A program made the position numbers and the translations under genes. The notes under the pieces are model-generated. The model had not been told where the DNA came from. It searched no databases and was given only the letters and a program-made list of their open reading frames with translations. From Sphagnum compactum (Eukaryota): 64,000 nucleotides of DNA. Below are positions 1,942 through 44,714 of this stretch, piece by piece. The DNA is taken from the NCBI GenBank assembly GCA_965153455.1, contig OZ234494.1, forward strand, positions 1,426,001 through 1,490,000. Direction: 5' to 3'. Position 1 is the first letter of the stretch. The number at the start of each line of letters is the position of its first letter.

Positions 1942-4103
1942 GTGGGATCTTGGTGAAGTTAGGGTTTGTATCATAGCAAGGTCTAACAACAATGTGCAAA
2001 ACCAACCCATAGACACTCAGTGATCAGAGTTGTCCTTGCCCATCAGTATTGATGAGTTGTTCAGTAAGTATGGGTAAAGACATGAAAAAGAGTAAAGGAC
2101 ACAAGGATGCAAGTTCCCTTCTGTTAAAATATGGAACTGATCCAGGATATTACACAGTGAGACTGTGCATCCTGTTGAGGCCCTGGGGATATATTTTAGA
2201 CTGGAGAAAACTGAGCATCATGTCAGGAACTTGTTCTACAGAAGCACTGGACGGAGCTAGGAACTCAGGAAGTCAGTGCTGGAATATTGACCCTGACTGT
2301 TGAAAATTATGTTACGAAGGCCAAAGATACTTTTTACCAGGTATTTCTTGCCCTGCAGACTTTAACCTACTTCAGATTTTTAAGGTATGGATGCATATGT
2401 CTGGTAGGACATTCGTAACATAATATTGATTAGTGCTAGTCTTCATTTCCTCATGGATTTCTTAATTGAGTTCAACTAAGGTGTTCACATTTCTTTTATT
2501 GTGGTTGGTTAATAAAGGAGAGTTAGTGTTCAACTAACTGTGCTTCATGCAATGAACTAATATTTCCAAGAGGACATGTCTGCCCACAAATGCAGACTGC
2601 TTCACATTGTTACTACTTGAAGATGGCAGTCAAGGGGTGTGAGTGTCCTGCCTGTTCTGTTGCATTCCTTTATATGGAAATTATCTTCTAACTTTGATCA
2701 TATTTAATGCAAATTTACTAGTCCATACACTTTATGACTACTACTTGAAGAAGGTGAAATGTTGACAAATAGAGTCCACTAGTCGGGTAATTTTTAGCTA
2801 TAGACCTGTGCTTATAGTAATCTTGCTACACTGACTGTTGCCTGCATGGCAAGGCTTCAATTTGTGCGACCTCATCCTTCCTGAAAGGACCTGCACACTG
2901 ACAGGACTGTGGCTTTAATCTGTATGCTGGAGTGTGCAAACTGACAGGGGCGTGGCTTCAATCTGCGTGACCTCATCATTGCTGAAAGGGACAATGCACA
3001 CTGATAGGGCTGTCTCAGTGATGACTGATGGTACATCCCACTCACCCACACCTAAAATCTGCTTTGGTCATTTGTTGAGCAGTTCTGAAATATTCCTTCT
3101 CCCAAATGCTTCAAAACTTAATTCAAACACTGATATCAGTTTTTTGTTGATATCTACTAGCATTCACTGTGCCAACAATGACTGCACATGAAGAATCTGT
3201 TTCTTCAAAACCTAAGCCTTCTGTGCAGAGTTTGGGTGTACAAACCGGGTGCAACCACCATTGGGTGGTATGTGCAGATCTATCTATGAAGGAGGGTAGT
3301 TTGTTTTGTTTTGTAGTTTTGAGATCCACCGAACCGGGATGCTTCAGATCATGTTCATGGTGTCTTTGGAAAGCTCTCGACGAGGAGGGGTGAATGGGCT
3401 TGGTTCAATGACGATTGGACTTGCGGTGCAAAAGTTCTTGAGTATTGAATGATTTCTTCACTGAAAATTAAATTAAATCATAGCTGAAACATAGCTCCCA
3501 ATGTTAGAGTTATGATTATGGTGGACTGAAGATGGAGGCTACTTGGTTTGGATACATTTTATCTCCAGATGTGGGACATTTGGCTTAGGGTTTTGCTAAT
3601 TTTTCCTTTAGGGTTTTACATATACTATTTGACCTACAGTTGCATTGTCAAAAGTTGTCTTGAAAAATATGGGAAGTTTGCCTTTCAAAAGCAGGACATC
3701 AGGTTTAGGTCCTAAAGATTCAGTGCATCAAAATATCACAAAATTTATTGGATCTATAGTTTATAACCAGCCGGGGAGATTAAGCAAAATCTGCACATCC
3801 CATATATGATCAAATAGTAATTATGGGAATTCATTATCTTAGTAGTAATAATGAGAAATGTAATGAAGGTTTTGAGGTGGATATTTAAGTGTCTGCTTTT
3901 TTATGTCAATTTTTTCAAGTAACAAATATTAGCAATATTGGAATTTTGTCCAGAAATCATATTCATTTTATGCAGACGGTGGTTTTTTGTCCAACATTTT
4001 GTAGCTAATCCAAATACTCAATTTTAAGCTAGTTGGCTGGTTCCCTTTATAATGAGTTTTGGAATTGTCAGTCAGTACAAGTCTAAGGCATTGTACAGCA
4101 TTA

Positions 4104-35730: not shown

Positions 35731-36994
35731 ATTTTGAACAAGTTATTGCATTTGATTGGTTATACATAAATAATATTACAAAACCTTTATCTTGGAATGT
35801 ATGCATTAGTTGAAGAAATTAATTACAAACCTTTTTTTTGGGTTTAGTTGTGTGTAATGGAAATGAAAACATACCTTATCTTAAACCATACTAACTTTAA
35901 ATGCTTTATAAAAATGATTGCAATCAAATGTTTTTAAAATGTTCACTCATGAGTTTACATCACTGAAATGCCCACATGCCCATAAGTGCATAAAATAATA
36001 TTGCGAGTGCAATAAGACCAAAGACTTAATACTCATCTACTTAACACGTTGTGGGGTTTGTTCTCTCATTGAAATTTACCAAAGGGATGCGTCATGGATA
36101 TCCTATTACACGTACTTTTGATTTATGAACCTAAATTTTCTTTGTGATTGATGTTCCTTGATCACACCTTAGCTGTCATGTTGTGTTGTTTTATTGATTT
36201 TTTTAACCTCTTAATTGCAATTTCCCTAATGATAACCTCTTTTTTGGACCTTATTTTACCATCCCCATTGAATAACAACAATTACAACTTGATAAAATAA
36301 CTACCAACAACCACCCCCCACTCCACCTCATAATGCCTTCTATTTTTTTTATTTACCTTAATTATCTATTGAATTAACTTTCACCAAACTAAGATTAAAC
36401 ATGCAACATATTTTCCAAATTTTCTGAAACTTTCAACAATAAACACAACAACTAACTCCTACTTTGCACAACACTTAGACCACAACCACCCTTCTTTTTT
36501 ATATTACTCTTTTCAAAATCCAAATAACATTAGTTGTACCCAATATGTCAATCCCCCTTATTTTTCTTTAACAAGAAAATTAAAAATTCTTTACACTAAA
36601 AAAAAACCCCTAAATGTGCAACTACATTTTGAACCCATTTTCAATTATTGTAATTGAAAACAAACATATACAATTGCAAAATTTTTTTTTTGCAATTTGA
36701 AACATTTTTTTACATTTGCGCATGAAAAAGTTTAACAAATACAATTTGAAAACAACATTACATTTGAAAATTACAACATTTCAACACCATGGCAATAACC
36801 ACTTTAGTTACAAATGACATTAATCATTATAATCAAAGGTTGTTTTCAATTGTAACCCATTGGTGGATGAACTGCATTCATTAACATTGCATAATGTTAT
36901 CAAATCTTGAGTTGTAAGTTCAATTGTGTTGCAATTAAGCCATACACAAGGTTCAACCAAAAGTTTAGTGATATGTAGCACATCCCCACATCCA

Positions 36995-37510
36995 TAGGCC
37001 CTAGGCATGTGGCATTTAGGTTACACCACCTAAACATAGGGCTAAACTAGACCATGCAGTACCTAAACATTGGCCCCCTGAGTTAGGCTAGGTCACATGG
37101 CATCTAAACATAAGTCACTTAGATTAAATTAAGCCACATGGCACTTAAACATAAGGCTATGTTATGTAAGGCCACTTGGCATTTAAACATAGTCCACCTA
37201 GGTTAGATTAGGTCACATGGCACCTAAAAATAAGGCTATGTTATGTTAGGCCATGTGGCATTTGAACATTGGCCGCTTAAGTTAAGCTAGGGCATGTGGC
37301 ATGTAGGCTTGATCATTTAAACATAGGATTAGGCTAGGCTAAATCATGTAGCATCTAGGCTAAGCTATGTGACACTTAAGCAAAGTCAAGCCTTAATAAT
37401 CTAGATGGTTTTTAAATTATACCCAAGCCATGTGACATTTAAGTTGTGCTTAGACTTAGGCCACATGGTACTTAGGTTAGGTCTAAATCTAAGTCACATG
37501 ACACTTAACT
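36995..37510. repeat. Degenerate cluster of GCCACATGGCAC/TAAACATA motifs, probably TE subterminal repeats
   Basis: More than ten variants of (g)ccacatggca / ccatgtggca spaced about 35-45 bp apart. Confidence 0.6.
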
Positions 37511-37889
37511 CAGACAATCCTATTTCACTTTGAGTTTGACCTAAAAGTTGAACGTTATAAGTTCATCCCAAGTAACATTTGTTTTTTAACCTATTAACCT
37601 AGGTATTGTTTATTGGTAACCTATCAATTGGTTATAGTTTTTTGAAATTTACCCACTTGGTGCAGATCATTCCAAGAATTAACAAGACTTTTTATGGGCT
37701 AGGTTTTGAATTTTAAAATTTCAATTTAACCTACTTAGATGATTCAAATTTCATCTAGGTAAATTACCAATCCTAAAATCCTAAGCATGTTTAGGATAAA
37801 AAACAAAAAACGAAGAAATAAAATTAGAAAAAACCTATAACCTAGGCTACCTAGGTACGGCAGGGTAACCAGTGGTTCTCAAGGTTAGT

Positions 37890-38720
37890 ATTTGAGAACT
37901 GACCCTTATTGTTCATCATGAAGGTGATGATCTTCATCTCTTGCACACATCATAGCTAGTGAACCTTCGTTGCTAGTTGATTTGTGGAAGATGATGCCTT
38001 TTCAATTTACGATCTTCTATTTTATTAGTGTAAGAGAAGTGACCCTTATTGTTCACGATGAAAGTGATGATCCTCATTTTTTCCACACATCACAACCAGT
38101 GCATCTCCATCGCTAGTTGATTTATGGCCAATGCTTTTTTAAGTTTACGACCTTCTATTTTATTAGTGTAAGAGAATTGACCTTTATTGTTCACGATGAA
38201 AGTGATGATCCTCATTTTTTCCACACATCACAACCAGTGCATCTCCATCATTAGTTGATTTATGACCAATGTCTTTTTAAGTTTACAATCTTCTATTTTA
38301 TTAGTGTATGAGAATTGACCTTTATTGTTCACGATGAAGGTGATGATCCTCATTTCTTCCACACATCACAACCAGTGCATCTCCATCGCTAGTTGTTTTA
38401 TGACCGATACTTTTGTAGTTTACGGTCTTCTATTGAATTGATGTATGAGAAAAGACCCTTATTGTTCACAATGAAGGTGATGATCCTCATTTCTTCCACA
38501 CATCACAACCAGTGCATCTCCATCGCTAGTTGATTTATGGCCGATGCCTTTTTAGTTTACAATCTTCTAATTTATTAGTGTATGAGAAGTGACCCTTATT
38601 GTTCACAATGAAGGTGATAATTCTCATTTCTTCCACACATCACAGCCAGTGCACCTCGGTCGCTAGTCGATTTATTGCTGATGCCTTTTCAGTTTACCAT
38701 CTTCTATTTTATTAGTGTAT
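37890..38720. repeat. ~138-bp tandem array, 6 diverged copies
   Basis: GACC(C/T)TTATTGTTCA recurs at ~37901, 38041, 38179, 38317, 38454 and 38591; the units align along their whole length. Confidence 0.95.
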
Positions 38721-39493
38721 TAGTGGTGTCCTGATTGTTATGTTCTTTCATGACATAACATGTTCTCGTGCTTTTCTTTGGAGGGACCTTGTGACTGGCA
38801 CTCACAAGGTCATGACTGCACTGATTCTTGTTGTCTTTTGTTTTGTTTTGGTTGTGGAACTGGAACAGTCTTTACCTTCACCATATTATTGTGGAGTCTT
38901 TTGTGCAGTCTTGTAGATGTGAATTCGATCGGCTGGTGTATACTCTGATGGCAGAGATGTCAGCAGCATCATCTACAGGTGCTGTTCAGAGTTGGGTAGT
39001 CAAGCAATTTTTTTTTCTCTGAGTTAGTGGACACTGTCAAGTGCATGTGACAGCTTCTGGTTCAGTGCCACAGGGCTGGAGGAGCCTCAGAAGCAGGAAA
39101 TCTTTTGATAGGTGTAGCAGGTCCCACTCTCAGGTAAGCAATTGAGTAGAGACTTGTGAGTAGACAAATCACTTGTGATGTCCATCCTCAGCAGCAAAGT
39201 GATCCTCAGCAGCAATCCTCGTTTGTTTCCGATGATGCAATAGTTGTGGATCACCATCTGTATGTACTGTAGTCTTAGCTGCTTGATTTTGTGGGTATTT
39301 CTTATGAAATTTGATTGAAATTTGATTGGTGTGTTCTCGATCAACAAGGAGCTGTAGTGTGCAATTTCTTGAGTGTTCAGACATGATTTGATTGTTCAGA
39401 TGGAAGTAGATAAGTGGATGTACATTGGATGCATTGACAATCCGATTGCAGTGCCCATGAGGGTGTATGATATTTCAGTGATTCCCTTGGTTC

Positions 39494-41345
39494 ATGGCAG
39501 GCCAGAGAAGGATGGTTGAAAAACTTTGGCAGCAGTTTTTCTCAGATCCTTCACAGTGGTGGGGTCACAGGCCAGAGAATGTAAATGAAAATGGTCACCA
39601 TCAAAATGCTCTCTGTGGTGCAAGGAGTCAATGCATCATTTGTTGGCTGTGGGTTCTCATAGCCTTACCCTCCACCAGGCTATGCAGGACTGATTAGTTG
39701 GATGGAGGTTTGCTTGTAGGTAAATGAAAGCTACCCAGATTTCAAACATAAGGAGACAAATGATGCTCTGTGGCTCAATGACAGATTGAAGCCCCCATGG
39801 GTGGAAGCAGAGTTGGCAGCAGTGGCACCACGAACTTTACAATTGAGCATTTTTCATTGGAATGCAAGGCTTGCAAGATATGCTAAAACTGGGCAATATG
39901 AGAAGATAAGGCAACTTTTCCAACAAATGCAACAAGAGGACATACCTCCAGACAGTCTCACTTTTGTTCAAGTGCTCAATGCACGTGCAAATTTACAAGC
40001 ACATGAAGAGGGCAGACAAGTACATAAACAGGCCACCCAAAGTGGCTGGGAGTCAAATGTCTGTGTGGGTAGTAGCCTTGTTGACATGTATGCCAAATGT
40101 GGGAGTATGGATGAGGCTTGGAGAGTATTCCACAAAATGCCTGCAATGTTGTCTCTTGGAATGTCATCATTCTCAGATATGTGAAGTGTGGGCAAGGGCA
40201 CAAGGCATTGGATCTCTTTTGACAAATGCAACATGAAGGCATACAGCCAGTCCCTAGAACCTTTCTGGCAGTGCTGAGTGCATGTGTAAGTGTAGTTGCA
40301 ATTGAAGAAGGCAGGTGTGTTCATGAGCAAATCGTTCAAAATGGATACGAGCTTGACGTCTTTGTTGGTAATAACCTCATTGACATGTATGCAAAATGTG
40401 GGAGCATTGAGGATGAATGGCAATGTTGTCTCTTGGAATGCAATGCTTGGAGGGTATGCCATGCATGGGCTTGCTGGAGAAGCTGCTGAATTTTTCAAAT
40501 GGAAGTGTGAAGAAGGTGTAGAGTTGGATAGGGTGACGTTTTTTTCTCTTCTGTGAGCTTGTAGCTCTGCATGGCCAGTGGATGAAGGACTGCACTACTT
40601 TGAATCCATGACTTCAGTTCACAGGATTTCTGCAACAGTAGAGCACTATGTGTGGTTGGTTGATCTTTTTGGCCGTGCTGGTCATCTTGATGAGGCAGAG
40701 GATCTGGTCAGGAGGATGCCCTGCGAGCCTGATACTTCAGTGTGGAGGGCCTTGCTTGCTGCTTGCAGAGTTCACTGCAATGCGGAGATGGGAGAGCACA
40801 TTGCAAAATGAGTTCTTGAAATAGACCTTGAGAATGCTGTGGGCTATGTGTTCTATCAAACAATAATGCTGCTGCTGGCAAGTGGGATCTCAGGTCAAAC
40901 ATTCAATGACAGAGGTTGGAAAGGAGTGTGAAGAAGTAGCCAAGTCGCACCTGAATTGAGGTGAAAGATGTTGTGCATATATTTGTAATAGATGACCAAG
41001 AACATCCTCAGGTGATAGAAATCCATGCAGAACTTAAAAGACTGTCTGGACACTTGAACAGAGCTGGGTATGTGCCAGATACCCAAATTTGTTCAACATG
41101 ATGTAGAGGAGGAAGAGAAGGGTTTTCATTTCTGTTACCGCAGTGAGAAACTGGCCATTGCATTTGGGCTCATCAGCATGCCTCCTGGTACTCCACTCTG
41201 CCTTCTCAAGAATCTGCGTGTATGTGGTGACTGCCTCACTCCCACCAAATTCATCTAAAAGATTGTTGGAAGATCAATCATTGTAAGGGATGCCAATTGC
41301 TTTCACCACTTTGAGGATGGTCTTTGTTCTTGCAGGGATTATTAG
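39494..41345 (+). pseudogene. PLS-class PPR-E1-E2-DYW RNA-editing-factor pseudogene with an N-terminal OSB-like PDF motif
   Basis: Exon 39494-39580 (LWQQFFSDPSQWWGHRPEN), intron 39581-39719, then VNESYPDFKHKETNDALWLNDRLKPPWV. About 9 PPR motifs follow (P-L-S-P-L-S-P2-L2-S2), then E1/E2 and DYW (RSEKLAIAFGL, KNLRVCGDC, RDANCFHHFEDGLCSCRDY*). Several frameshifts and stops; HxE reads RSE, and the terminal W codon is TAG. Confidence 0.9.
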
Positions 41346-41898
41346 TGTTGACAGAATTTGGCTTTCACCCCAGTCCCTGGATGAGGCTCTGTGGACTCAA
41401 ATTGTTGCACATGATTGCCATAATTAAGACAAGGGTGTACTGGATTGGAAGTTCCTTGTACTCACTGGACCATGATTTTTAGACCTACATTTTCCAGCAA
41501 GACTGGTTAACAGGTTACCTTCTGTGCCAGATTAATCCTGGGCACGCTGATTTTGGTGTTCATACTTGTTGGATTGGATCCAAAAAATTGGATGGTAGTT
41601 GTGAGTTGTTCATAACCTCAAGACGAAAATGAAAGAAAGCAGTTGTAAGTAGACAAAGTTAGTTGGTAAGCTTACAGATTTAGCTCTTGGAGAACCTTGC
41701 CTTGGTGTGTTCCAGACATCTTAATGACTGTCATGTATTGGATACCCAAGAGGATGAAGTGTTTGTAGGGATGTGTTGCTTTTGTTTTGGGCACACCACC
41801 ATGCGTGTTTTGGTGTGTATATGGTGGGTTGTCAGATAGGAGAATTTCAAGCAGCTATGGAGGCAGGTTGCCCCTGAGAGAACCATTGGTGGAGAAAA

Positions 41899-44714
41899 AT
41901 GAGTAGAGGAGCAGGTGCTGGATATGATCGTCACATCACCATCTTTTCTCCAGAAGGTCGCCTCTATCAAGTTGGTGAGTTTTTTTGCTTTCCAATTGCA
42001 CATAGAAACACTCTTCATCATCTGTTCCTTGGTTTCACAAGTTTTTTCAGCAATTCCCCAAATGTGATGTGTCAGAGGATGTCACCTTGGAAGAAGACAT
42101 TATACTCATTTGTGTGGTATGTGATCAGAATATGCATTTAAGGCTGTGAAGGCATCAGGTTTGACATCTGTTGGAGTTCGTGGAAAAGATTCGGTTTGCA
42201 TTGTGACTCAAAAGAGAGTGCCAGTATTGCTTCCCTCATACTCCATTCATTTCTCCCCCAACAACATTTTGTACATATTATGTTATGATCAATGTGATCT
42301 AGTTATGTCCTACTTTTGGTTTGTGGGTGGGTGGAACTCATGATGTTGTTGAAAACCCTAACTATGTTTGCAAACTCCATCTTATACAACCATATCTACA
42401 ATCCAACGATTTGATATTTTGTTAAGGTTTATGGGTGCTTAATCTTGTGTATAATGGTGATGGGTAGTATGTGTGTTCATAATGTAGGAAAAGCTTTTAG
42501 ATCATGCAAGCGTGACTCACCTCTTCACCATAACCAAAACCATTGGTCTTCTTGCTACTGGAATGACCGGTATGCCATACACCCTCCTTTGATTTATTTT
42601 TGCAGTGCATTTCTTGTTAAACTTTGCTATCACATGTTATTTTCCTTTCATTGAAGAACTTTTTGCTTGAATCAAAGAGTTGTAGTTATGATGAGTACAA
42701 ATCTTGTTGATGTTTGGGAAGTACCCCAATCCTTGGATTATATTCCCACTTTTCTTCTCTTGTTTATCTTCAGTGTGTTGTCTTCATGGCAATCTTGGTG
42801 GGAACATGGGGTGTTGAAATGTAGCGGATGCAAAGTCATTGGTGCAACATGCTCAAGAAGAAGCTGCAGAGTTTCGTTTTAAACTTGGGTATGAAATACC
42901 AGTAGACTATCTTGCAAAACGGTAAGGTTTGCTTTGAATTCTCATGTTTCTTATAATTGTTTAAACCAAATAAAAGAGCATGGAATTGTGTGGGTAAATG
43001 AAAACATTGTACACAATTACAATGTTTGAAATATGAAATCTCTTCTTATGTGTGTGGATAGAAAAACTAAGATTTTAAATTTGTAAAGATATTAACAAGA
43101 TGTTGATGATGACAATGAAGTGGATTTATCAAGATGGTTGGGAATAGGCTTGCTGATAGATCACAAGTTTACACGCAACATGCATACATGCGACCTCTTG
43201 GAGTTTGTAAGTCTTGTTGAACATGTCTTGCACAAGAAACAAACTAATACTAGAGAAGGAATGATTTCTCAGTTGAACATGATAAGAAGCAATTTACCCA
43301 TCCTTTTGGAATGATAATAATGTGCAGCTGCAATGTTAGTTGGCATGGATAGTGAAAACGGTCCACAGTTGTACAAATGTGATCCTGCTGGCCACTTTGT
43401 TGGTTACAAAGTAAGACCACATCACCATCCATCTCCACATTATGTAGATGATAGATGTCACACAACAAGCAAAGCATAATGTACTCAAAGACACTTTGTA
43501 GTGAATTTGTAGTTATTTGTGTATATCCCTGTTTAGAAATAGAGGAGGGATATTATTCCTATTCCTTAAAAGTGTGAGAATTTTACACCTACGTATAAGT
43601 AGGTGTAAGATCTCGCAGGTGTGTGATCCATCACGCCTTCAAGGAGTAGGCATGAAGAACCTCCCTCTCCTACACCTCGCGATCTACCATATGTTTAGGT
43701 TATGATAACCTTCACCATGCATAAGCCAACGGGTCAAGGACATTCCCAAAGTGCAAGGTGGGACAAGGCTAATGTCTTGTCTTAGGCCTTTTATTTGTGG
43801 AAGGTCCTTACACTTTCACTAGGATTAAAAGTTCTTTGATTCCACAATAGATGAATATAATGTAATTACTAATGGGCAATTTATTTGAACTTCTGCAAAA
43901 CCTTTCATGGATGAAACAAATGGGTGTCTTGATGAGAGGGCTTCTAGATCAAAATGGAGACTTATGATTTGCTTTTATCTTGTGGTACCTTGAGATTGTA
44001 AGTAAATGATTGATTACTCTTCATGTAATCCAAGTCATAAGCAAATCATTTCACTACAACATTACAATGTTTAGTCATTAATACCCAAAGATAAAATGCA
44101 TCAATATTTTTTCATCATAAAATTGATTAGCCTACATGTAGGCAACAAGCTCAGGATTGAAAGAACAAGAGGCAATTCATTTCTTGGAAAAAAAGATGAG
44201 GAACAATCCTCTACTATCTTATGACGAGACTGTGCAAGTAAGGATGTCCCCTCCCCCATTTAGAAGTCATTGGTGCAAGTCTTTTTCAACAAGTGCATTC
44301 AACACTCATTTGAAAGGAATGGAAAACATGCAAATAATAAAATATTTTGTTAGTTAGTATATTGATTTGTGTTTTTGACCTGAATGCATTGATCAAATAT
44401 GGGGTTGAAACTAGCTTTTGGTGGGGTTTCAATAGACTGCAATTTCAGCCTTGCAATCGATTTTGTCAGAGGATTTCAAAGCTACAGAATTGGAGGTATT
44501 AATTTTATTTTCATTTTGATGCCATGTGTTTTGGCATTGAATGAACCATGGAAATTATCAGTTGGGCTAATTTGCATTATACTAGACTTATTGTGTTGCA
44601 TATGTGTGATTAATGTGTTAGGTTGGAGTGGTGAGTGTGGCCAATATAAACTTCCATGTTTTATCAATAGAGGAGATCAACCATCATTTGATTTCGATAA
44701 GTGACCGTGATTAG
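41899..44714 (+). CDS. PAA: 20S proteasome subunit alpha type-6 (alpha1), 9 exons, 246 aa
   Basis: Exons 41899-41974, 42129-42223, 42488-42569, 42825-42921, 43148-43206, 43328-43410, 44142-44237, 44436-44495, 44622-44714; all GT-AG, 741 nt. Motifs: [51 protein letters not shown]. Confidence 0.95.

Follow-up and report, generated by a model that had tools for sequence, protein, structure and literature searches.

A decayed PDF-PPR-DYW gene in Sphagnum compactum and its intact relatives in non-seed land plants

Background

RNA editing in plant organelles has PPR-DYW factors at its core, and programmable RNA base editors are built on them. Approximately one RNA base is recognised per repeat of the PPR array, and the factors of non-seed plants are thought to act nearly alone, without the MORF helpers of seed plants. 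Outside the proteins described here, the PDF motif is, to our knowledge, restricted to organellar single-strand DNA-binding (OSB) proteins.

OSB proteins carry an N-terminal SSB-like OB fold and C-terminal PDF motifs, with neither PPR nor DYW. The PDF-PPR-DYW proteins examined here share with them the same motif, the same conserved residues, a variable copy number and, presumably, an organellar location. They differ in that the OB fold is absent and the PDF is N-terminal, followed by a PPR-E-DYW module. PDF motifs are described as approximately 50 aa long and responsible for ssDNA binding (PMC4166229, PMC6963530, PMC6451138).

Described PLS-class PPR-DYW factors (e.g., Physcomitrium PPR56 and PPR65; the synthetic PPR-DYW protein of PDB 9kfx) have a transit peptide alone before the array. 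Intact members of the present family resemble them in the PLS array, the E1/E2/E+ region and a DYW domain with HxE and CxxCH, and differ by the added PDF. A Physcomitrium catalogue gives RRM, LAGLIDADG, SMR, NYN, CBS and SAP as additional domains, with PDF absent, and moss editosomes are thought there to consist of one DYW protein and a few unidentified non-PPR factors (PMC9459714). A 2026 kingdom-wide survey of editing-factor fusions leaves OSB and PDF unmentioned in its main text, in which fusions of helper and PPR domains are already known (PMC13386178).

In editosome accessory modules (MORF/RIP, ORRM, RRM-PPR fusions such as PPR4, and OZ), a second, less specific binder aids a PPR protein on RNA, and a similar helper role may be proposed for the PDF. 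It is unrelated to MORF, RRM and zinc fingers, and differs from these modules in being fused to the N-terminus of DYW-type factors, in bryophytes and lycophytes and not in seed plants. No description of a PDF-PPR fusion was found in the full-text literature searched (subscription journals and supplements lay outside its reach), and the family is apparently undescribed.

Results

The window, i.e., the whole 64,000-nt stretch of Sphagnum compactum DNA that was analysed, contains the following features (positions are those of the window; a caret marks a splice site):

39494-39500, + strand: 3' end of an upstream intron of phase 1 (...ATGGCAG^), placed from homologous acceptors in paralogues
39501-39580, + strand: 80-nt exon with the first PDF half (helix, W..FF..P.QWW.HR..), placed with the OSB-only profile; equal in length to exon 2987-3066 of the paralogous contig L029
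39581-39719, + strand: predicted 139-nt GT..AG phase-0 intron splitting the PDF motif, placed from same-site introns in paralogues
39720-39824, + strand: second PDF half (..YPDFKHK...ALWL....PPWVEAEL..), placed with the OSB-only profile
39825-41065, + strand: decayed PLS-type PPR array and E1/E2/E+ region, placed by Pfam PPR matches and frameshift-aware alignment
41066-41345, + strand: decayed DYW cytidine-deaminase domain, placed by Pfam DYW_deaminase, alignment to the intact homologue P0080, and sequence

Removal of 39581-39719 (139 nt, GT..AG) rendered frame 2 of 39494-39580 continuous with 39720 onward. The joined peptide (W..FF..P.QWW.HR, then ..YPDFKHK...ALWL....PPWVEAEL) contains PDFKHK, QWW.HR, ALWL and PPWV, and is followed directly by PPR motifs. 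A profile HMM of OSB motifs only (136 PDF instances from 43 non-PPR, OSB-like proteins) was searched against 2076 window ORFs of at least 20 aa plus the joined peptide. The joined peptide was retrieved with 75.1 bits (E 2.9e-22) over profile positions 4-59 of 62, and the runner-up window ORF was at E 0.26. Each half was also matched separately by this profile (first half, 23.5 bits, E 3.6e-6; second half, 44.6 bits, E 9.5e-13). In the reverse direction, a profile of five PPR-linked motifs retrieved proteins named OSB1 and OSB3 by their source (E 1e-67 to 1e-28). The first 40 residues of the second half were 68-78% identical to intact PPR-DYW proteins of Calypogeia and Sphagnum. A Pfam scan of 39482-39697 (the PDF part) returned no families, the PDF being without a Pfam model. 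The sequence-only reading had claimed an OSB-type PDF motif, split by an intron and in frame with PPR motifs, and had set alignment to PDF motifs beforehand as a refuting test; the claim is borne out, with highly significant similarity in both profile directions.

No SSB match (PF00436) was obtained in the window frames or in L001, an intact transcribed relative. The control L059, a classical OSB protein with Pfam SSB and one PDF from the same moss source as the loci, gave SSB at 1.1e-17. Because the SSB-like OB fold is absent, window-type genes are not OSB genes and have the motif alone in common with them. PPR-linked and OSB-linked PDFs separated almost cleanly in a tree of 188 motifs (FastTree on 62 columns, weakly resolved), in which the OSB label changed 3 times versus 62.5 times when shuffled.

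The first 10 nt of the 139-nt piece (GTAAATGAAA, at 39581) recur at the very start of the next exon (39720). Such a repeat would be left by a late insertion, e.g., of a short mobile element that duplicated 10 nt of its target, in place of an intron; most paralogues are uninterrupted at this site, and RNA-library contigs retain the piece. These metatranscriptome contigs (X15, X16 and X18; ~97% identical, from a close relative) are colinear with the window through the 139 nt and may be DNA or unspliced RNA. Against an insertion, ten loci of four paralogue groups (L028/29; L053/54/55/80; L072; L073/74/78) are interrupted at precisely this codon boundary by 141-150 nt that likewise begin with GT and end with AG. 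The second exons are open in all ten loci and reach GDYW in two of the four groups, and transcripts L001 and L013, which derive from L029 and L072 respectively, have the same-site intron spliced out. Furthermore, blastn aligned the window straight across the piece to L080 and L029, and the piece is therefore older than the divergence of these three copies. The 10-nt repeat could itself be a relic of intron origin and not the mark of a recent event, and a late insertion is very improbable. Intron-bearing copies were basal, with a clade of 26 intron-less genomic or transcript rows nested within them (support 90); as several of these rows are transcript contigs, the nesting says little about gain versus loss of the intron. 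One X15 contig, joining 39563 to 39722 with 23 other letters, was rejected as a spliced paralogue distinct from the window locus.

The ATG at 39494, taken as a start codon by the sequence-only reading, lies within ...ATGGCAG^G, where an upstream intron of phase 1 has its conserved 3' splice acceptor. Homologous acceptors were identified in L028/29, L053/55, L072 and L073 as ..(T/A/C)(T/G)GCAG^G, with ATG in only some copies. In L029, intron 2713-2986 ends at the homologous acceptor and is spliced out, in phase 1, in transcript L001. Since the ATG belongs to the acceptor of the upstream intron, M39494 is not a start codon, and the exon begins at 39501. The lack of a targeting peptide before M39494, remarked on in the same reading, is explained by an upstream exon: the L001 product has a 112-aa presequence before its PDF. 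When window positions 36500-39500 were compared by blastn and tblastx with the regions lying upstream in L029, L053, L055, L072, L073, L008 and L001, neither an upstream exon nor a targeting peptide was found. A candidate donor for the upstream exon between 39133 and 39134 (CAG^GTAAGC) was discarded, its phase being wrong for the phase-1 acceptor.

Downstream of the PDF, Pfam PPR_2 was matched on 39720-40181 (E 1.6e-14), with Pfam PPR at 2.2e-11, and DYW_deaminase (PF14432) was matched on 41058-41255 (E 4.8e-16, profile 7-63 of 93). Decay was mapped by frameshift-aware alignment of the window to eight intact homologues, and identical lesions were obtained with seven of the eight as reference. 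The copy contains 4 frameshifts (near 40144, 40415-40421 and 40852, and in the DYW domain at 41084) and 7 in-frame stops (40220, 40554, 40809, 40907, 40937 and 40952, and in the DYW domain at 41256). Approximately 105 codons (one PLS triplet) are absent near 40235-40250 relative to P0080. The window and P0080 are identical at 373 of 568 aligned codons, and the closest intact PLS-DYW proteins are at 62-66% identity. The E1/E2 stretch also aligns to P0080, and holds one frameshift and four stops. In the DYW domain, the catalytic HSE has become RSE and CGDCH has become CGDCL, leaving neither an HxE nor a CxxCH site, and a terminal TAG replaces the W codon of relatives (DYW to DY-stop).

Window 39501-41345 (+ strand) is thus a pseudogene, a dead PDF-PPR-DYW paralogue now without function. 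It had been described from the sequence as a decayed member of a family combining PDF with a PLS-PPR/E/DYW module. This is supported, with heavier decay than the wording implied; the PPR array and DYW domain are still recognisable by Pfam, and the catalytic motifs and the terminal W are lost. In a poly-A RNA run of the same species label (X22, of which 12% was examined), 269 of the 270 placed reads fit the window only partly and therefore derive from paralogues and not from the window copy. No full-length read of the window copy was found in the examined 12% of that run.

The combination of PDF and PPR was found in 145 of 201 fetched proteins, and 41 retain DYW active-site motifs. PDFs were N-terminal to the first L-motif signature in 143 of 144 proteins. 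The architecture was seen in annotated proteins of Sphagnum, Ceratodon, Calypogeia and Diphasiastrum; for example, Ceratodon P0200 contains PDF, PPR, E, E+ and a full DYW. Diphasiastrum PPR proteins made up 108 of 120 among the matches listed, and this clubmoss has more than 100 family genes, with two or three PDFs per protein. Fern evidence consists of one atypical protein (P0082: two PDFs, few PPRs, no DYW). A search with a 314-position OSB-plus-PDF profile gave 1405 protein representatives at E <= 0.001; the best 150 of these were nearly all OSB-like, and 2 of the 136 that other searches did not retrieve look PPR-like. As that profile is not PDF-only, it says little about the spread of the fusion.

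Pattern matches on metagenome contigs were confirmed in 519 of 600 cases. At most genomic loci the PDF and the PPR array lie in one unbroken frame (L012 and L020 encode 872 aa ending in MDYW). Short open frames were observed in many family members among the metagenome loci, and a large part of the family may be dead, as the window copy is. Transcript contig L001 is 100% identical to genomic contig L029 with the introns removed. Its 788-aa product (presequence-PDF-PPR-E-DYW) is open to GDYW, with Pfam matches to PPR, E, E+ and DYW (1-93 of 93, 154 bits). An intact, expressed PDF-PPR-DYW gene, which had been asked for as a check on the sequence-only reading, therefore exists in L001/L029, alongside many annotated proteins. 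The presequence is rich in Ser and Arg (S 20, R 13, D+E 4), a composition from which we infer that family members are targeted to organelles.

Among 18 paralogues, the PDF had a median dN/dS of 0.13 and the PPRs next to it one of 0.28; judged by these ratios, the PDF is under purifying selection. In 45 aligned PPR- and OSB-linked motifs, W11, F14, F15, P18, W21, W22, D23, R25, K28, P34, D35, F36, K37, H38, K39, L45, W46, P53, W55 and V56 were conserved in at least 90%.

PDF-PPR-DYW genes form a family in the nuclear genomes of land plants other than seed plants, and are common among mosses, liverworts and clubmosses. The best explanation of the locus (probability about 0.88) is that it is a dead paralogue of a presequence-PDF-PLS-PPR-E-DYW family whose intact relatives are most likely RNA editing factors. 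A one-off juxtaposition without a real family (an OSB fragment beside a PPR-DYW pseudogene, or halves joined by a convenient GT..AG) would fit the dead window copy, the retention of the 139 nt in RNA-library contigs of a relative and the single such locus in 64 kb, but is refuted by the same order and spacing in hundreds of proteins and loci, by the unbroken frames at most genomic loci (L012, L020) and by a spliced transcript (L001) spanning presequence, PDF, PPR and DYW.

The model of the PPR part matched 9kfx_A, the crystal structure of a synthetic PPR-DYW protein with RNA (E 1.2e-14, rmsd 0.9 over 194 columns). The linker between the PDF and the PPR array is short and conserved, and was of low confidence in the AlphaFold model (pLDDT 57-67, residues 61-80), so the model does not fix where the PDF sits with respect to the RNA groove. 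The PDF modelled alone was compared with the PDB by using Foldseek (best E 3.6; 11 matches, none reaching E <= 0.001, with weak WW-domain hits at E ~9) and VIA-align (97 chains at Z >= 2, none >= 5, best 3.5), and its sequence profile reached a best E of 0.1 against the PDB. Without a match among solved folds, the structure offers no hint on function.

Discussion

An intact family product would consist of an organelle-type presequence from the upstream exon, an OSB-type PDF, a PLS PPR array with E1/E2/E+, and a C-terminal DYW domain. The array would bind a transcript of the mitochondrion or plastid on the 5' side of the C to be edited, and the DYW domain would convert this C to U, as in other PPR-DYW factors. 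The PDF module, predicted as a small helix and three short strands rich in conserved W/F/K/H/R, probably adds a sequence-independent grip on single-stranded nucleic acid directly 5' of the PPR footprint. Such a grip would raise affinity or dwell time where editosomes lack the MORF helpers of seed plants. A role for the PDF as a nucleic-acid-binding accessory of editing is somewhat better than an even bet, and within this reading RNA is favoured over ssDNA by roughly two to one. For intact members in general, we infer organelle targeting, editing activity and the PDF ligand.

The PDF could bind ssDNA (the non-template strand, R-loops or nucleoid replication intermediates) and hold the factor at the transcription site for co-transcriptional editing. 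It is reported as the ssDNA-binding part of OSB1, and AtOSB1 and AtOSB2 are reported to prefer ssDNA over dsDNA or RNA (PMC4166229, PMC6963530), which favours DNA over RNA as the ligand; OSB-conserved residues are also retained in the fused motifs, under purifying selection. However, the PDF stands directly in line with an array that binds RNA, at its 5' end and joined to it by the short conserved linker, and this placement is likewise compatible with a contact to the same RNA. Tethering to ssDNA is a possible but unlikely alternative. The sequence-only reading had tentatively put forward tethering to nucleoids or R-loops, and action on ssDNA.

It is still less probable that the PDF no longer binds nucleic acid and serves in protein contact, as a folding cap for the first PPR, or in oligomerisation. 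Many of the conserved residues are aromatic and could build a hydrophobic core, the fold is without a solved relative, and AtOSB2 is reported as tetrameric (PMC6963530). Basic residues (R25, K28, K37, H38 and K39) are nevertheless retained with the aromatics in both contexts. Clubmoss proteins carry two or three PDF copies, which mirrors the link between OSB PDF copy number and the length of ssDNA bound (PMC6451138).

A speculative extension, to which we give long odds, is that PDF-PPR-DYW proteins make up an editing-factor class of their own, clamped by the PDF to organellar ssDNA and coupling bryophyte and lycophyte editing to the nucleoid. In its boldest form, some members would deaminate the displaced DNA strand. 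If true, strand deamination would offer a programmed path by which RNA editing sites become C-to-T changes in the genome, and the two or three PDFs in more than 100 clubmoss genes would be an adaptation of a hyper-editing lineage. That the fused proteins deaminate cytosines of single-stranded organellar DNA, as the presence of a cytidine deaminase beside a motif that binds ssDNA and the ability of a designed PPR protein to bind ssDNA (5orq) might suggest, is most improbable, since E, E+ and DYW are ordinary full-length RNA-editing modules and the nearest structure to the PPR part is that of a PPR-DYW protein bound to RNA, with no sign of a DNA substrate.

Conclusions

The window locus itself is a dead copy, and its value is as a pointer to the family, which spans mosses, a liverwort and more than 100 genes of one clubmoss. 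The PDF motif, for which there is no solved structure and no Pfam model, gains a second biological context. Should editing activity be raised by the PDF, designer editors could be fitted with it. A large, selected and conserved class of editing factors that carries its own single-strand-binding motif is a candidate answer to how affinity is attained without MORF.

The pseudogene locus

Once 39581-39719 is removed, frame 2 (39494-39580) reads on in frame from 39720, as the sequence-only reading had proposed. The joined reading is W..FF..P.QWW.HR followed by ..YPDFKHK...ALWL....PPWV and passes directly into PPR repeats.

Features of the pseudogene (window coordinates)
39581-39719, + strand: GT..AG piece of 139 nt, from reading of the sequence
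39720-40181, + strand: PPR_2 (Pfam, 1.6e-14)
41058-41255, + strand: DYW_deaminase (Pfam, 4.8e-16)

No Pfam family matched the frame of the first half-motif, nor the N-terminal parts of two intact relatives (transcript contig L001 and protein P0013); Pfam has no model for the PDF motif. When intact relatives were used as tblastn queries, no further PPR-DYW locus was found in the 64-kb window besides the pseudogene. Just upstream lies a tandem array at 37885-38720 (137-bp unit, 6.1 copies, 87% matches), with repeated peptide pieces visible in the ORF list, and a short array occupies 37089-37301 (period 79, sub-period ~40, 2.3-3.7 copies). A proteasome alpha-subunit gene begins ~530 bp downstream of the pseudogene end, with its first exon at 41878-42138 (+) and continuing onward (Pfam Proteasome_A_N, 9.3e-10).

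The window copy was compared with eight intact relatives using frameshift-aware protein-to-DNA alignment. The same lesions were obtained with 7 of the 8 references: frameshifts near 40144, 40415-40421, 40852, and 41084, and in-frame stops at 40220, 40554, 40809, 40907, 40937, 40952, and 41256. With P0001, the remaining reference, two more frameshifts and one more stop appeared at the N-terminus, which we take as an alignment artefact. Relative to the best reference, P0080 (Diphasiastrum complanatum), 373 of 568 aligned codons were identical, ~105 codons (one PLS triplet) were absent, and the DYW catalytic motifs HSE and CGDCH were changed to RSE and CGDCL. Instead of the terminal W of relatives, the window copy has a TAG codon. 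With 4 frameshifts, 7 stops, and catalytic substitutions, the decayed state suspected earlier was confirmed, and the window copy is, judged from these lesions, a dead, inert pseudogene. Using 12% of X22, a poly-A RNA run with the same species label, 269 of the 270 reads placed fit only partly and piled up on conserved L-motif stretches, and these reads are therefore attributed to paralogues.

Identity of the motif

Against the joined window peptide, a non-PPR PDF profile (136 motif instances from 43 proteins without PPR signatures) scored 75.1 bits (E 2.9e-22), the match spanning positions 4-59 of the 62 in the profile. The two half-motifs also matched when taken separately (44.6 and 23.5 bits), and the next-best window ORF reached E 0.26 (2076 ORFs). 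In the reverse direction, profile A1, derived from five PPR-linked PDF motifs, matched 569 proteins at E <= 1 (1807 candidates); among the 120 matches listed were proteins named OSB1 or OSB3 by NCBI/UniRef (E 1e-67 to 1e-28). The proposed PDF identity was thus upheld by an OSB-type profile that finds the window motif and a reverse profile that finds named OSBs, and the agreement of two independent search directions places the motif, by similarity, among PDF motifs. When 45 PPR-linked and OSB-linked motifs were aligned, a common set of 20 positions was conserved in >= 90% of rows.

PMC6963530, PMC4166229, and PMC6451138 describe the PDF motif as 50 aa long and named from Pro, Asp, and Phe; OSB proteins carry one to four copies after an OB-like domain, their ssDNA binding is attributed to the motif, and for OSB1/2 a preference for ssDNA over dsDNA and RNA is reported. 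Long PDF arrays without PPR or a recognisable Pfam domain were also observed (P0009, 1160 aa, 13 PDFs; P0010, 908 aa, 11; P0202/P0203, 9 each). One predicted protein, P0211 (1526 aa), has three PDF motifs and then a kinesin motor domain, and is probably a merged gene model.

Gene structure and an expressed member

In most genomic loci a single frame runs through presequence, PDF, and PPR array, as in L012 and L020 (872 aa, ending MDYW). Ten loci in four paralogue groups (L028/29; L053/54/55/80; L072; L073/74/78) contained a GT..AG piece of 141-150 nt exactly at the window's position. This PDF intron is in phase 0 and follows the codon just before V-N-x-x-Y-P-D-F; the second exon was open up to GDYW in two of the four groups. 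Transcript contig L001 was identical to genomic L029 minus its introns, which were located by comparison of the two.

Features of L029 (L029 coordinates)
2713-2986: upstream intron, phase 1
2987-3066: exon, 80 nt
3067-3207: PDF intron, 141 nt, phase 0

L013 is likewise a spliced form of L072. From its first Met, the L001 product is 788 aa and comprises a presequence, PDF, PPRs, E, E+, and a complete DYW domain (154 bits); the 112-aa presequence contains 20 S, 13 R, and 4 D+E. L001 is an intact, expressed, spliced family member.

The window exon at 39501-39580 is 80 nt, as in L029. The ATGGCAG| preceding 39501 aligns with the upstream-intron acceptor in all intron-bearing paralogues, the ATG being present in only some of them. 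M39494, presumed earlier to be the start of a protein with no visible targeting peptide before it, is therefore not the start; its position is the 3' acceptor of the upstream phase-1 intron. The presequence should, by analogy with these paralogues, lie on an upstream exon; no such exon of the window copy was found by similarity. In RNA-library contigs of a close relative (~97% identity) the 139 nt are retained, and the window intron is a predicted one.

The first 10 nt of the window intron (39581-39590, GTAAATGAAA) are repeated at 39720-39729, the start of the next exon. Nearly the same repeat occurs at the same places in L053/L055 and a shorter one in L029, and intron-less paralogues read AAG|GTAAAT at this site, a perfect proto-splice site. 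Such a repeat could remain from an origin of the intron by a short duplication. Another possibility is that the intron-less copies are retrocopies; in a tree of the copies, 26 intron-less rows, genomic and transcript, form a nested clade.

Extent of the family

A query of 40 residues from the start of the window second exon already matched intact PPR(-DYW) proteins, from Calypogeia fissa and from Sphagnum, in 8 of 10 candidates (identity 67-78%). PDF and PPR signatures were found together in 145 of 201 fetched proteins using a local PDF profile, and 41 of these 145 also contained the HSE and CxxCH motifs of active DYW. PDFs preceded the first L-motif signature in 143 of 144 proteins. Moss and liverwort proteins had one PDF and those of D. 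complanatum one to three. A search with the P0015 PDF region, restricted to proteins of 581-1850 aa, returned 190 matches; 108 of the best 120 were Diphasiastrum PPR proteins (~100 locus tags), and Ceratodon purpureus P0200 carried PDF, PPR, E, E+, and a full DYW domain. A family with PDF-PPR-DYW architecture, earlier proposed from the window, thus exists as intact annotated proteins and the spliced transcript L001. Since PDF-PPR proteins occur in Sphagnum, Calypogeia, Ceratodon, and Diphasiastrum, the fusion spans Bryopsida, Sphagnopsida, a jungermannialean liverwort, and a lycopod. P0082 was the single fern example and atypical, and no seed-plant PPR protein was among the 120 matches listed in each of the A1 and P0015 searches.

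In JGI metagenome contigs, at least 519 pattern matches, of the 600 listed, encoded the motif, and the 80 loci kept comprised no fewer than 35 variants of it at < 92% identity. Many of these loci had short frames and may also be pseudogenes.

Many Diphasiastrum PDF-PPR proteins (for example P0028, P0053, and P0060) had no DYW and shared a similar short tail, ..W.QLD. P0080 (783 aa), the closest intact relative of the moss-like pseudogene, has a single PDF and moss-type repeats. The majority of the other clubmoss members carry two or three PDFs, and their repeats are of another flavour. P0080 could belong to an ancient shared subfamily, or it could stem from horizontal transfer or contamination.

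Selection, motif tree, and structure models

Across 18 paralogues, counting only pairs with dS of 0.05-3, median dN/dS was 0.13 in the PDF (115 pairs) compared with 0.28 in the 204 residues that follow it (152 pairs); the PDF is more strongly constrained than the neighbouring repeats. In a weakly resolved FastTree motif tree (62 columns, 188 instances, 233 before near-duplicate removal), OSB-linked and PPR-linked motifs were separated with 3 label changes; shuffled labels needed 62.5. The window motif belongs to a group with branch support that comprises 26 PPR-linked, 11 fragment, and 2 'OSB'-tagged rows. This topology fits, and is not proof of, one or few fusion events.

An AlphaFold2 model of the PDF with six PPR motifs (18 sequences) had a mean pLDDT of 88.6. 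In this model the PDF forms a helix at residues 5-20 and then three short strands (block pLDDT 81-90), with an uncertain linker to the first PPR (pLDDT 57-67), and the PPR part matched the synthetic PPR-DYW/RNA structure 9kfx_A (E 1.2e-14). The PDF modelled alone (45 sequences, pLDDT 80.1) gave no convincing match among solved structures.

Putative role of the PDF

The PPR-E-DYW part of intact members is taken to be an ordinary organellar C-to-U editing module. The fused PDF keeps the residues of ssDNA-binding OSB PDFs, is under stronger constraint than its neighbouring repeats, occupies the 5' side of the array that reads RNA, and is multiplied in clubmoss. The most economical reading is that it would serve as an added sequence-independent single-strand grip, raising the affinity of the factor for its substrate. 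Such a built-in helper would fit PMC9459714, in which moss editosomes are described as a single DYW protein with a few unidentified non-PPR factors, and a 2026 survey (PMC13386178), in which the MORF tree covers angiosperms and gymnosperms. Tethering of intact factors to nucleoid ssDNA by the PDF is a serious rival to the grip, since OSB PDFs are reported to prefer ssDNA. DNA deamination by the fused proteins would be a remote rival.

No description of a PDF-PPR/DYW fusion was found in the open full-text literature, and none of the papers there that name the PDF motif deals with PPR proteins. The main text of the 2026 kingdom-wide survey of editing-factor fusions (PMC13386178) contains no occurrence of OSB, PDF, or single-stranded, and the Physcomitrium PPR catalogue (PMC9459714) does not list a PDF-like domain. 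The fusion may be recorded somewhere outside the literature covered. As a local feature the window copy is ordinary; the interesting part is the family that this pseudogene revealed.
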